Origin: a virus
Lineage: Duplodnaviria > Heunggongvirae > Uroviricota > Caudoviricetes
IMG/VR virus record: IMGVR_UViG_2663763326_000006
Length of the DNA: 36,849 bases
Strand: one strand, 5' to 3'
The notes beneath the pieces were generated by a model. That model was not told the origin of the DNA and did not search any database. It saw only the letters and a list, made by a program, of their open reading frames with translations. The translations under genes and the position numbers were made by a program. Numbering within the stretch: the first letter of the stretch is position 1; each line of letters starts with the position of its first letter. Below, piece after piece: positions 6,805 to 13,627 of this stretch.

Positions 6805-7122
6805 TTATCCGATTCTGGCGGCAATTTTTCTGGCGAGGTCGCACAGTGTTTCGCCATCGCAGGTTTTCACCACGGTATTTACCGGTTGCGGTGCAACTAC
6901 CGGGCGTAATGCTGACTGATTCTGCAGACGTCTTATCTGCTGCATCAGCATCACCTCCATCGTCAGTACAAACGGGTGCGTCTCCTGTGCGGGTACGCAG
7001 ATTTCACCGGAAGGGGTCACCACGCGGAAACCCTGCACCATCTCCGGCAGCAGATTACACAGTGCGTGCCCCAGTGCCTCCGGGCTGTCCATCAGGGTAT
7101 TTTGTGTGTTATTCGTATTCAT
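6805..7122 (-). CDS. hypothetical protein upstream of transposase (105 aa)
   Basis: ORF in early operon; no recognisable motif. Confidence 0.4.
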   Translation of the reverse strand: MNTNNTQNTLMDSPEALGHALCNLLPEMVQGFRVVTPSGEICVPAQETHPFVLTMEVMLMQQIRRLQNQSALRPVVAPQPVNTVVKTCDGETLCDLARKIAARIG

Positions 7123-8042
7123 TACTGCATATCCTCCGGTCGGTTGATTTCAGGTTCCGGTTCGGTCAGCCAGGCGGGGGCATCGTTACCCGATGGAGCG
7201 GCCTCAAGGTCAAACGTCTCACGTAATGCATGAACACTGCGTTCAATCTGGCAGACCAGACCGGCCATGAAATCTCTGGGGGTATCGATCATGTTTTTGG
7301 TGCAGTATTCACACAGGGTCTCAAAAACACTGGACAGCCGGACGGCGATAGCCGATTCGGCCTCAACCGCTAATGCCGTCACTTCCGCCCGCAATTTTTT
7401 CAGTTCTTCGTCTGGCGGCGGAGGTTGCAGGCGCGATTTCTTCTCCAGTTTTGTGGCCAGTTCGTTGATTTTTTCGTCCTTTCCGGCAAGCACCTGTTGC
7501 TGAGCTGCGTTGGTTTCGCGCGCTTCACGCAGGGCGGCCTTCAGTTCGCGGCTGGTCATGCGATCAATATCATCAAGCGTTGCACCGGCGACGGTTCCAC
7601 CATCAGCTAATGCGTCGAGTTCTTCGTCATCCAGAACCATCAGTTCATATAACTTGGTTTTTCCCAAAACGCTCAGCGCTGAGCGTTTTGGCTGTTCATC
7701 TCCATTGCCGAGAAATTTCACGCTGGCCTGCATCATGCGACGAGCTACCTGTGGTGCTAATCCGAGGTCGTTTTCCAGAATATTTGTGAAATCACCATGC
7801 GGTTCATTTTCTTTTAAGATGATCAGCCGCTTACCCGCTTCCAACATAGATTCAGCACTCTGCGCCATATAAAAACGTGCTTCGTGAACGATGCGTTCAC
7901 GTTCATAAGGCAGTCCATCACCAAACTGCTGCATGATCTCCATGCGATGCTGTGTCATGGCATTCAGGCTGACGTTGAGATCATCCGACAGCGGTACATC
8001 GGCGTTCAGTTCAGTGTTAATCGGTGATTTGGTACGTCCCAT
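7122..8042 (-). CDS. hypothetical early-region protein (306 aa)
   Basis: Long ORF with acidic coiled-coil central region; between regulator genes and transposase. Confidence 0.5.
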   Translation of the reverse strand: MGRTKSPINTELNADVPLSDDLNVSLNAMTQHRMEIMQQFGDGLPYERERIVHEARFYMAQSAESMLEAGKRLIILKENEPHGDFTNILENDLGLAPQVARRMMQASVKFLGNGDEQPKRSALSVLGKTKLYELMVLDDEELDALADGGTVAGATLDDIDRMTSRELKAALREARETNAAQQQVLAGKDEKINELATKLEKKSRLQPPPPDEELKKLRAEVTALAVEAESAIAVRLSSVFETLCEYCTKNMIDTPRDFMAGLVCQIERSVHALRETFDLEAAPSGNDAPAWLTEPEPEINRPEDMQ

Positions 8043-8052
8043 TGATTACTCC

Positions 8053-8367
8053 TTACAAACGACTACCTGAAATGACACGTTGGTTAATTTCGTTAATACG
8101 ATCCTGTGCACGTGCCATCTCGTTACTGTGGGCCATGGCGATCTGCAGTAACTGGATGCCCGGTGCAAAACGTCCGTTCTCCAGTTTCAGAGCCAGCCCT
8201 TCTTCAATGAGGGTGTTGAGTGCCCGGTTGATGTTTGCCGGTGACTCGTGCAGTGCTGTCGCCAGTTCACCGTTAGAAATACCGTTCAGGGCATGACCGC
8301 GCAGCGCTTTGAGTACCCGGAGGATGCGACTGCCGGAGCTTGAAACATTCGTCTTACTCATCTGCAT
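8053..8367 (-). CDS. winged-helix DNA-binding regulator, IclR-N-terminal-like (104 aa)
   Basis: Motif RILRVLKALRGHALNGISNGELATALHESPANINRALNTLIEEGL resembles an IclR-type HTH. Confidence 0.45.
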   Translation of the reverse strand: MQMSKTNVSSSGSRILRVLKALRGHALNGISNGELATALHESPANINRALNTLIEEGLALKLENGRFAPGIQLLQIAMAHSNEMARAQDRINEINQRVISGSRL

Positions 8368-8413
8368 ACCTCTTTTGCGATATGTGATAACCTTTTACAA
8401 AGACTCAAAATAT

Positions 8414-8602
8414 TTAGGCCGCCTGAGCTGTTGATTTCAGTCCCAACTTCACGGCGATTTCATGGGATTTACCGTAACGGGCTTTGGTCTGCCCGTTGAG
8501 AACGCGGTATACCTCATTGCGGTTGTAGCCGTTTTCTTCTGCCCAGCGGGTGAAAGTGATCCCGCGCTGGCGGAAGAGAGCTTTGACTTGTTCTGCAGTC
8601 AT
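8414..8602 (-). CDS. ner: Ner-like small DNA-binding protein (62 aa)
   Basis: Pattern ALFRQRGITFTRWAEENGYNRNEVYRVL...GKSHEIAVKLGLK parallels Mu Ner/Nlp; first gene of leftward operon, divergent from repressor. Confidence 0.55.
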   Translation of the reverse strand: MTAEQVKALFRQRGITFTRWAEENGYNRNEVYRVLNGQTKARYGKSHEIAVKLGLKSTAQAA

Positions 8603-8654
8603 CGTTGTCTCCTTTGTTGATGCAATGATGTTTGCCTTATATGTGTTAGATTAT

Positions 8655-8672
8655 TGCTCATAATTATGAGCA
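8655..8672. promoter_or_regulatory. perfect 18-bp palindrome TGCTCATAATTATGAGCA, putative operator
   Basis: Lies in the 93-bp AT-rich gap between the divergent Ner-like and repressor starts. Confidence 0.5.
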
Positions 8673-8695
8673 TATCAAGATAGAGATTCACTTTT

Positions 8696-9052
8696 ATGAG
8701 CAAATATATAGGAGAGCGCGTTATTTCTGTGAGGAAGAAAGCAGGGTTGAACCAGAGAGAATTTGCAGCTCGTTTAGGTATTTCTAATGGTGGTATCAGT
8801 CAGATTGAAAATGGAAAGGCGATGCCTGGAGGGGAGTTTCTGTTAAAGATGCATCAAGAGTTTAATGTTGATGTAAATTGGTTGCTCACTGGAATGAGCA
8901 CAGATGGTATGACTAGAAACCAGAATCAAATTTCCCCAGAAAAACAAAAACTAATAGATACTTTTGACGACATGACACCAGACCAACAACGCTCATTTCT
9001 TGAGATTGGGCGATTCTATACTCAGCCAAAACCAGGAAAAATCGCAGGCTGA
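8696..9052 (+). CDS. XRE-family HTH repressor (118 aa)
   Basis: N-terminal HTH LNQREFAARLGISNGGISQIENG; markedly AT-rich gene; divergent from early operon. Confidence 0.6.
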   Translation: MSKYIGERVISVRKKAGLNQREFAARLGISNGGISQIENGKAMPGGEFLLKMHQEFNVDVNWLLTGMSTDGMTRNQNQISPEKQKLIDTFDDMTPDQQRSFLEIGRFYTQPKPGKIAG

Positions 9053-9137
9053 TACTGACCCGGACACAAAGGACAGGTGGTTGATCTGGATGCTTTCAGA
9101 AAACATCGCCAGTGACATAGTGGAAGTTGTTTGGTTT

Positions 9138-9168
9138 ACCGGAAAGCATTGTGCTTTCCGGTTTTGTT
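9138..9168 (+). terminator. rho-independent terminator after repressor gene
   Basis: CCGGAAAGCA-TTGT-GCTTTCCGG stem-loop followed by TTTTGTTT. Confidence 0.6.
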
Positions 9169-9933
9169 TCAGAAGTTGCAGATTAGCAGTTCACGGCGCG
9201 GCGTGGGTTTACCCGCCAGACTGTAGTTGATATTCACTGTCTGTATGTTCAGTCCAGTGAACACCTCGCGCATCTGCGGGATGTCGTTCACCGAAATTAT
9301 CATTTTTCCTCTGATGCACCGGGCCAGCTCTGCCAGCCGCGAGTAGTTCCCTTCAGGAAAATCCACACCATAGCCTTCCGTACCCAGGTACGGTGGGTCG
9401 CAGTAGAACAGCGTGTGCGGACGATCATAACGCTCAATGCACTGTTGCCAGTCCATGTGTTCTATGACTGTTCTGGAAAGCCGCAGGTGTGCCGCTGACA
9501 GTTCTTCTTCAATACGTAGCAGGTTGAAGCGTGGCGGGGATGTGGTGGAGGTACCGAAGCTGTGCTCTGCCACCTTGCCGCCAAACGCCTGCTTCTGAAG
9601 GTAGTAGAACCGTGCCGCACGCTGGATATCCGTCAGTGTTTCTTCCGGGGTGATCTGCAGCCATTTGTAGATCTGACGGCTGACCAGCGCCCATTTGAAC
9701 TGGCGGACAAATTCTTCCAGGTGATGCTTTACCACCCGGTACAGATTCACCAGTTCACCGTTGATATCATTGATGACTTCGATCTTGCCGGGTGTCTTAA
9801 GAAAATAGAGCGCTGCTGCCCCACAAAACGGCTCCACATAACATTCATGCGCCGGAAACAGCGGCAGAATGTGTTTTGCAAGGCGGCGTTTGCCACCAAT
9901 CCACGGCACGATGGGTAATGTCTGCATTTTCAT
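9169..9933 (-). CDS. Dam-family N6-adenine DNA methyltransferase (about 254 aa)
   Basis: N-terminal PWIGGKRRL motif and catalytic DPPY (FYCDPPYLG); start chosen at MKMQTLP. Confidence 0.8.
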   Translation of the reverse strand: MKMQTLPIVPWIGGKRRLAKHILPLFPAHECYVEPFCGAAALYFLKTPGKIEVINDINGELVNLYRVVKHHLEEFVRQFKWALVSRQIYKWLQITPEETLTDIQRAARFYYLQKQAFGGKVAEHSFGTSTTSPPRFNLLRIEEELSAAHLRLSRTVIEHMDWQQCIERYDRPHTLFYCDPPYLGTEGYGVDFPEGNYSRLAELARCIRGKMIISVNDIPQMREVFTGLNIQTVNINYSLAGKPTPRRELLICNF

Positions 9934-13304: not shown

Positions 13305-13627
13305 CACTGCAGGTTGAATTCTGGACGGTGGTGAGTTTTCTGCTCACCTTCATGAGGTTTGTGGGAGGGCTCGCCAAATGGTTGTTCAGTAAAACAGAAG
13401 AACGCCAGGCGGCACGATTCGCCTCCCTTGAACAGGCCCTGCAACAATCCGCCTCCAACTGGGGCGAGCTGGAAAAAGAATTTATGCGATTTAAAGCGGA
13501 TTTACCGCTGAATTATGTCCGTCGAGAGGATTATATCCGTGGCCAGACAGTCATTGAGGCCAAACTGGACGCGCTTTATAACAAACTGGAAGTGGTACAG
13601 CAGTACCGCAATACCGGAGGTCAATAA
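13301..13627 (+). CDS. membrane-anchored phage protein (108 aa)
   Basis: N-terminal TM followed by coiled-coil; start overlaps spanin stop. Confidence 0.45.
   Translation: MTLQVEFWTVVSFLLTFMRFVGGLAKWLFSKTEERQAARFASLEQALQQSASNWGELEKEFMRFKADLPLNYVRREDYIRGQTVIEAKLDALYNKLEVVQQYRNTGGQ

Follow-up and report, generated by a model that had tools for sequence, protein, structure and literature searches.

Putative operators and an exchanged specificity cassette in the lysogeny switch of a BcepMu-like prophage of Escherichia coli

INTRODUCTION

In phages 434 and P22, the repressors (cI and c2, respectively) recognize dyad-symmetric operators in which the outer bases are conserved and the A/T-rich centre varies. 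A set of adjacent operators, graded in quality and about 20–24 bp apart, overlaps the lytic promoter and the start of the repressor gene, and the immunity specificity is exchanged as a module. In phage Mu, the gene of the repressor c is divergent from an early operon which starts with a small DNA-binding negative regulator, Ner, followed by the transposase A and the ATPase B. Mu has three operators, one of them covering the early promoter Pe, and these are formed of clustered 11-bp repeats. Phage BcepMu carries a divergent pair composed of gp16 and of the XRE-type ‘cro/cI’ gene gp17; its operators are undescribed in the available literature. Here, we analyse a stretch of 36,849 nt of viral DNA (IMG/VR record IMGVR_UViG_2663763326_000006, hereafter the window, which means the whole stretch at its full length). 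We focus on a perfect 18-bp palindrome, O1, located between the divergent genes of a gp16 homologue and of a 118-amino acid (aa) repressor, for which a preliminary description made without database searches had proposed the role of operator of the lysis-lysogeny switch.

The window combines features of these systems. Its repressor carries a helix-turn-helix (HTH) domain homologous to that of 434 cI and P22 c2. Its putative operators resemble theirs in their dyad symmetry, conserved outer bases and variable A/T-rich centre, in being several neighbouring sites of graded quality with a predicted overlap of the lytic promoter as well as of the start of the repressor gene, and in the modular exchange of immunity specificity. 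Unlike the 434 and P22 repressors, that of the window has a two-helix hairpin of ~30 aa and a tail instead of the S24 domain. The first two operators are separated by 30 bp, the third is located within the repressor gene itself, gp16 appears to own a separate site instead of sharing the operators, and the operon under control is a transposition and replication operon. With Mu, the window has in common the order of the divergent genes and the three operators including one over Pe, but its repressor is unrelated to Mu c, its gp16 has no sequence relationship to Mu Ner and its operators are simple palindromes; no evidence was found that they double as a transposition enhancer. With BcepMu, the divergent pair as well as the downstream early and lysis genes match, whereas the repressor HTH is 23% identical and the operator sequence is different, which places the two phages in different immunity classes. 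In functional terms, the locus is best described as a 434/P22-style repressor-operator set in a Mu-style switch, that is, an ordinary phage switch and not a new mechanism. What the analysis adds is an operator map, an immunity cassette defined at the domain level and a codon-level footprint of an intragenic site, rather than a new regulatory principle.

RESULTS

A perfect palindrome occupies the spacer of the predicted early promoter

The 93-bp gap (8603–8695) between the leftward gene of the 62-aa gp16 homologue (8414–8602) and the rightward gene of the repressor (8696–9052) holds the sequence TGCTCATAATTATGAGCA, with halves TGCTCATAA and TTATGAGCA. The sequence read at 8655–8672 is the perfect 18-bp palindrome reported in the preliminary description, and the divergent region is AT-rich as stated there, with a GC content of 32.3% compared to 40.6% in the repressor gene and 55.3% in the window. 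The palindrome is however not centred in the region, as had been claimed, since its centre (8663.5) is offset from that of the spacer (8649) toward the repressor side. Allowing up to 3 mismatches, O1 is its own sole match in the 36.8-kb window (0.03 expected). A perfect 18-bp palindrome occurred in 0.045% of the composition-preserving shuffles of the 93-bp spacer (a probability of 4.5e-4), and block shuffles of the whole window gave 0.18 such palindromes per window.

A sigma-70 scan of the region returned one promoter, Pe, on the minus strand and pointing to the gp16/transposase operon, with a -35 hexamer TTGATA (8678–8673) and a -10 hexamer AATAAT (8655–8650). O1 occupies the 17-bp spacer between them. 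To compare this arrangement with that of related loci, we surveyed 80 gp16 loci from gamma- and beta-proteobacteria which, together with the window and E. coli variants, provided 78 non-redundant upstream regions. A clear promoter and a palindrome were both present in 58 of these 78, and the best palindrome was centred at most 3 bp from the centre of the spacer in 36 of the 58 (versus ~6% expected by chance). About 20 distinct palindrome sequences sit in the same promoter spacer across the related loci. In most of them a TTGACA-like hexamer directly adjoins the palindrome, and a NATAAT motif is found at a fixed distance from the gp16 ATG, 47 nt in Enterobacterales and 67 nt in Pseudomonas. The same arrangement is seen in BcepMu (TTGACA-17-CATACT), which has an inverted repeat GGTA-N10-TACC in the spacer.

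O1 follows the DNA-binding domain of the repressor

Repressors of the same class are encoded at seven loci, the window, L009 and L088–L092, and share 57–78% aa identity. The motif TGCTCA-N6-TGAGCA is found at the O1 position in all seven, with a single G for A in L090, and the central 6 bp vary among them while being mostly A/T. Six of the seven repressors have the same recognition helix, SNGGISQIE, while that of L092 reads SSGGISQIE. The gp16 protein does not show this correspondence: L004 encodes a gp16 100% identical to that of the window, yet carries an unrelated sequence at the O1 position together with an unrelated repressor HTH. Similarly, the unrelated sequences at the O1 position of L003, L005 and L008, whose gp16 are 75–87% identical, track the repressor HTH class. 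Since a locus with the same gp16 differs at this position and the loci with the same HTH share TGCTCA-N6-TGAGCA, these comparisons indicate that O1 follows the DNA-binding domain of the repressor and not gp16. TGCTCA-type operators in Pseudomonas (L024, L025 and L058) were considered as members of the same specificity class and excluded, their HTH being unrelated.

Taken together, these results suggest that O1 is very probably the primary operator of the 118-aa repressor, through which the transposase operon would be silenced, and that it is one of three related sites. The proposed role of lysis-lysogeny operator is thus borne out on comparative grounds, O1 both filling the spacer of the predicted early promoter and co-varying with the repressor HTH domain.

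The repressor is of the 434/P22 type

The repressor has a five-helix DNA-binding domain that matches Pfam HTH_3 (4.5e-15, 55.9 bits for a cutoff of 23) and, in sequence, the 434 repressor (E = 3.9e-8) and P22 c2. In a Foldseek comparison of its structure model, P22 c2 was retrieved with a template modelling (TM) score of 0.88 and a root-mean-square deviation (rmsd) of 1.2 Å, and the 434 repressor with an rmsd of 1.4 Å and 41% identity. The top fold matches were all XRE-type, with no Mu-type winged helix among them, and BLASTP revealed no similarity to Mu c (NP_050605; E = 0.54 over 6 residues). The XRE-type character of the protein and its dissimilarity to Mu c had been correctly recognized beforehand.

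No Peptidase_S24 domain, responsible for autocleavage and oligomerisation, was found in the repressor by Pfam search, and its C-terminus forms a two-helix hairpin in the structure model. In domain layout and length the protein resembles SinR, a type of regulator which oligomerises and binds its antagonist through a C-terminal helical hook; SinR matched residues 5–106 in sequence (E = 2.2e-4) and ranked fourth by fold. Superposition of the whole chains was poor, with an rmsd of 12.6 Å, and a SinI-like antagonist was not identified for the window repressor. The hairpin and the tail QPKPGKIAG (residues ~81–118, 8936–9049 in the window) are conserved across heteroimmune cassettes, and this part of the protein could mediate dimerisation and provide a protease or an antirepressor with a handle.

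The repressor transcription unit is closed by a terminator composed of an 11-bp stem including 6 GC pairs, followed by TTTTGTTT. The 118-aa repressor is not annotated in the GenBank record of Escherichia phage PhiKM (L001, PQ738613), where a 41-aa open reading frame (ORF) of the opposite strand (6941–7066, corresponding to ~8993–9118 in the window) is annotated in its place. RefSeq E. coli records do annotate the repressor, with a start over-extended into the operator or the gp16 gene in some variants (L004, L005).

gp16 and a conserved box, its candidate binding site

The 62-aa protein belongs to the BcepMu gp16 family, as judged by its TIGR04111 score (97.4 bits for a curated cutoff of 34) and its 46% identity to BcepMu gp16 (E = 3e-18). 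Its predicted five-helix fold is like that of the 434 Cro and repressor proteins (predicted local distance difference test score, pLDDT, 85). It scored under the threshold of the Pfam Ner family (PF13693 HTH_35, 17.9 bits for a cutoff of 25), showed no similarity to Mu Ner by BLASTP (E = 5.9) and had zero matches in a sequence search of the PDB, while a fold search gave weak generic Cro/XRE matches (E ≥ 0.2), Mu Ner being absent from the top 50. The designation ‘Ner-like’ used previously is therefore appropriate for the position and general fold of the protein, but not for its family. Together with the repressor results, this places both regulators of the window outside the Mu c and Mu Ner families, since the features which define these families were looked for and not found.

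As the L004 gp16 is identical and faces a different sequence at the O1 position, gp16 is predicted not to bind the O1 palindrome. It probably acts at another element. A box in the early leader (8617–8634, CAAACATCATTGCATCAA) has a core, TTTGCATCA(C/A), that is kept in most of the gp16 loci compared, in Enterobacterales, Pseudomonas, Xanthomonadales and beta-proteobacteria, and the box is missing from two loci which have an unrelated ORF of 74 aa in place of gp16. This box could be the binding site of gp16 or, alternatively, an RNA element.

Two further sites, O2 and O3, are constrained at the DNA level

The preliminary description had suggested searching the prophage for more half-sites, and two further sites were found. 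An exact third copy of the half-site TTATGAGCA, at 8694–8702, forms the right half of O2, a weaker candidate 30 bp from O1, and spans the repressor ATG (8696) and codon 2. Offsets of 29–34 bp between O1 and O2 are found again in at least six specificity classes unrelated to one another, among them the asymmetric one of L004, and the start codon lies within O2 in four classes. Codon 2 of the repressor, Ser2, is AGC in all seven homologues, six Ser codons being possible. The other site, O3, sits inside the repressor gene, 228 bp from O1. Both its hexamers are exact in the seven same-class homologues, while the third positions of its central 6 bp vary freely.

We then examined codon usage in the first 72 codons of the seven same-class genes, which include 39 degenerate codons with an invariant amino acid. 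Only four of these 39 are codon-invariant: Ser2 AGC in O2, and Leu63 TTG, Leu64 CTC and Ser68 AGC in O3, all of them within the O2 and O3 hexamers. Random placement of four invariant codons on precisely these four has a probability of 1/C(39,4) = 1/82,251 (~1.2e-5), phylogenetic structure being ignored. In the GAGAAC and ATCCCA classes, too, intragenic copies were found. O3 is under selection at the DNA level, perhaps as looping partner or roadblock.

Near-matches to TGCTCA-N6-TGAGCA at 13341, 23059 and 33523 were rejected as being at chance level (2.0 expected with at most 2 mismatches). A separate perfect dyad, TGTTCA-N6-TGAACA (TGTTCAGTCCAGTGAACA, 9246–9263), is found 363 bp from O3 within the 3′ end of dam. 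A single symmetric change, C to T, distinguishes it from the operator hexamers, and it may be due to chance, as ~2 sites with at most 2 mismatches are expected per window. The near-site present at the 3′ end of the repressor gene of L009, a fourth site at that locus, has no counterpart in the window.

A ~275-bp cassette carries the specificity

Homology with heteroimmune relatives ends at 8654–8656 in ten BLAST comparisons. In heteroimmune E. coli relatives the gp16 side of the spacer is kept up to ...TAGATTAT, and divergence is complete from the first base of the palindrome onwards. Each of them carries its own repeat in place of O1, directly followed by a -35-like hexamer. The repeats found at this position include TATCCCAAAAATGGGATA, TGAGAACCATTGTTCTCA, ATACACAAACGTGTAT and the asymmetric GTGCAGA-N4-CTCAC. 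In L003 and L004, homology to the window resumes at 8928–8938, with 88–91% nucleotide identity in the flank. The gp16 gene, the promoter -10 region and the C-terminal domain of the repressor are kept across the swap, this domain being conserved across classes as ..EKQKLxDxFDxMxPEQxRxxLExG....QPKPxKxAG.

From these breakpoints and from the conservation of the C-terminal domain between classes, the exchanged unit, as read from the alignments, is a cassette of ~275 bp (8655 to ~8930) comprising the operators, the HTH domain and the linker. An exchanged immunity module had been suggested in view of the difference from Mu c. Exchange is real and takes place among the relatives of the prophage; it is not an exchange relative to Mu, because BcepMu gp17 is also XRE-type and repressors of this type are usual in the BcepMu family. 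Swapping of this cassette, with a breakpoint exactly at the operator edge, diversifies immunity in the wider BcepMu/B3-like group.

Candidate promoters of the repressor gene

Two candidates for the repressor promoter Pc were read from the sequence (Table 1). The first is an extended -10, TG-N-TAGATT, which is kept in all Enterobacterales immunity classes and lies on the conserved side of the cassette boundary. In the GAGAAC class a Shine-Dalgarno sequence (SD, GAGG) is located between O1 and the start codon, and the transcript there must therefore begin upstream of this SD. The second, weaker candidate is a hexamer closer to the start codon, which reads GAGATT, GATATT or TATGTT with A2 and T6 kept in six of the seven same-class loci (the TATGTT of L088 is offset by one base). 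No conserved SD was found upstream of the ATG at 8696 in these seven loci. This second candidate conflicts with the coverage of its -35 region by O1.

Table 1. Coordinates of the genes, candidate sites and predicted signals at the switch locus of the window

Feature	Coordinates	Strand	Basis and remarks
gp16-family small HTH protein, 62 aa, first gene of early operon	8414..8602	-	TIGR04111, phrog_925
Conserved box CAAACATCATTGCATCAA in early 5′ untranslated region	8617..8634	-	2–4 nt upstream of gp16 SD
Candidate repressor promoter Pc, extended -10 TGtTAGATT	8644..8652	+	predicted, read from sequence; overlaps Pe -10
Pe -10 hexamer AATAAT	8650..8655	-	promoter scan; first base is first base of O1
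O1, candidate primary operator	8655..8672		TGCTCA-TAATTA-TGAGCA, perfect 18-bp palindrome
Immunity specificity cassette (O1, O2, HTH domain, O3, linker)	8655..8930		BLAST breakpoints
Pe -35 hexamer TTGATA	8673..8678	-	promoter scan; TTG invariant in 7 same-class loci
Alternative Pc -10 GAGATT	8683..8688	+	predicted, weaker; 7 nt upstream of ATG, would give leaderless mRNA
O2, weaker second candidate operator	8685..8702		GATTCA-CTTTTA-TGAGCA, 30 bp from O1
Repressor, 118 aa	8696..9052	+	N-terminal HTH residues 3–65, disordered linker, two-helix hairpin 81–109, tail QPKPGKIAG
O3, intragenic candidate operator	8883..8900		TGCTCA-CTGGAA-TGAGCA, repressor codons 63–68 (W-L-L-T-G-M-S)
Intrinsic terminator of repressor transcription unit	9138..9170	+	stem + TTTTGTTT

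DISCUSSION

Proposed organization of the switch

The following scheme could account for these observations. A repressor dimer would read the outer hexamers TGCTCA/TGAGCA of O1, the A/T-rich central 6 bp being probably uncontacted by analogy with the 434 and P22 repressors. Since O1 exactly fills the interval between the -35 and the -10, bound repressor would exclude RNA polymerase from Pe. This would silence the leftward operon encoding gp16, the winged-HTH regulator, the DUF3102 protein, the DDE transposase, the MuB-like ATPase and gam. On the weaker O2, three helical turns away and over the repressor start, another dimer would most likely provide cooperativity and negative autoregulation, and O3 could serve as a looping partner or a roadblock. 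In this scheme gp16 would be a counter-regulator of the Cro/Ner type acting elsewhere, probably at the box 8617–8634 in the early leader.

Several points weigh against this reading of O1. In the literature searched, no experimental work at the operator level (binding, footprints or mapped transcription starts) was found for BcepMu-like phages or for this prophage of sequence type 131 (ST131). The promoter scan is by itself non-significant (1 site versus 1.4 expected) and we therefore relied on cross-locus conservation; the related loci are, for their part, not phylogenetically independent. Conservation of O3 is partly confounded by a conserved protein motif, W-L-L-T-G-x-S. The O1–O3 distance varies by class (175, 228 and ~255 bp) without a common helical phase, and looping therefore remains speculative. 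Lastly, both Pc candidates would be shut by occupancy of O1 or O2, although repressor has to be supplied continuously in a lysogen.

One can imagine an extension of the scheme, possible but rather doubtful in our opinion, in which O1 and O2 pair with O3 in a looped repression complex through oligomers of the C-terminal hairpin. The conserved C-terminal domain, with its tail QPKPxK-F/I/L-AG, would then be a shared induction handle. If so, a single common inducer (an antirepressor or a host protease) could switch on prophages of different immunities, and the family would represent ~20 natural orthogonal repressor-operator pairs in one common promoter scaffold.

Alternative explanations

Binding of the XRE protein to the palindrome does not necessarily imply that it maintains lysogeny: its role could be limited to establishment, or it could be a regulator of the moron type, immunity being encoded elsewhere. 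We consider this unlikely. The lack of a RecA-cleavable S24 domain would be compatible with such a role, as would the presence of other HTH proteins encoded nearby, for example by the IclR-like gene 8053–8367. However, the IclR-like protein is identical in the heteroimmune variants L003 and L004, while the DNA-binding cassette is precisely the variable part between otherwise near-identical prophages, a signature of immunity specificity. Moreover, the XRE gene is the only gene divergent from the transposase operon and has its own terminator, and BcepMu gp17 holds the same position.

The palindrome could also act at the RNA level. In the fold of the plus-strand RNA 8650–8710, positions 8654–8663 pair with 8694–8703 (-13.8 kcal/mol, z = -2.9) and the AUG is sequestered. 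The left half of O1 would thus pair with the O2 half-site in the repressor mRNA and hide the AUG, exerting a translational control, and O3 would be an mRNA hairpin, a 6-bp stem being possible from any TGCTCA-N6-TGAGCA. Such pairing however follows automatically from the existence of three matching half-sites, and its relevance hangs on the start of the repressor mRNA, the likeliest Pc start (~8659) leaving out part of the left arm. An RNA stem would also tolerate covariation, whereas the hexamer is strictly invariant at the three sites in the seven homologues with zero compensatory changes. In addition, the position of the palindrome is locked to the promoter spacer of the opposite strand in ~20 classes, and the asymmetric direct-repeat site of the L004 class is unable to form such a hairpin. 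This explanation is thus quite improbable, and a role of O1 as a DNA operator is preferred.

Lambdoid Cro-type proteins share their operators with cI. One could therefore expect the palindrome to be bound by gp16, a small HTH protein with a predicted 434 Cro-like fold encoded beside O1, or to be shared by both regulators in the manner of lambda cI and Cro. This is very improbable given that the O1-position sequences of L003, L004, L005 and L008 are unrelated to that of the window and track the repressor HTH class in spite of identical or 75–87% identical gp16, and that the element co-conserved with gp16 is the box 8617–8634 and not O1. The analysis predicts instead that the palindrome is bound by the repressor only and that gp16 acts at another site.

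Finally, the idea of a functionless chance feature of AT-rich intergenic DNA, which could invoke the enrichment of short palindromes in AT-rich spacers and the non-significant promoter scan, is confronted with the shuffle probability of 4.5e-4 and is effectively refuted by conservation in seven diverged loci, by the same position across classes and by the codon-level constraint at the matching sites.

Phage context and distribution

By gene content and genome map, the window is a BcepMu-like (Bcepmuvirus) transposable prophage of E. coli. The Bcepmuvirus layout is recognizable in the divergent gp16/XRE pair, the early operon reading leftward and the lysis/structural block reading rightward. 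In the early operon, the gene of the 62-aa protein comes first; the other products are an IclR-like winged-HTH protein, a DUF3102 protein, a protein of 105 aa, a transposase of the rve type and an AAA+ (MuB-like) ATPase, with gam further on. No RNA genes were found in the whole window by Rfam at gathering thresholds or by tRNA scan. Region 8053–9170 is 99.9% identical to PhiKM (Bcepmuvirus) and at least 99% identical in 390 complete genomes of E. coli, many of which belong to ST131. This precise immunity type is present in ~390 of 5,426 complete genomes.

The map provides exact coordinates for the predicted operators and early promoter of a prophage present in hundreds of clinical E. coli genomes. 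It could be used for prophage annotation, as illustrated by the repressor missed in the PhiKM record, for the prediction of cross-immunity and as a source of orthogonal repressor-operator pairs.

In L088, whose repressor is 78% identical to that of the window (same immunity), a 182-aa Mor-family gene (859–1407) comes first in the leftward operon. It is located between gp16 and the repressor gene, behind the same leader and O1.

A perfect palindrome of 24 bp, AAAACGCTCAGCGCTGAGCGTTTT, is located at 7666–7689 inside the DUF3102 gene of the early operon; apart from this one and O1, the window has no perfect palindrome of at least 18 bp. Its RNA would fold into a stem of 12 bp with runs of A and U on either side (-19 kcal/mol, z = -3.6). 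The palindrome is kept perfect in L006 by a compensatory double change, CAGCGCTG to CAACGTTG, at the cost of an Ala to Thr substitution, and carries one mismatch in L013. Its core, GCTCA-N4-TGAGC, resembles the operator half-site with a different spacing. Possible functions are attenuation or termination of transcription before the transposase genes, or the binding of a protein.

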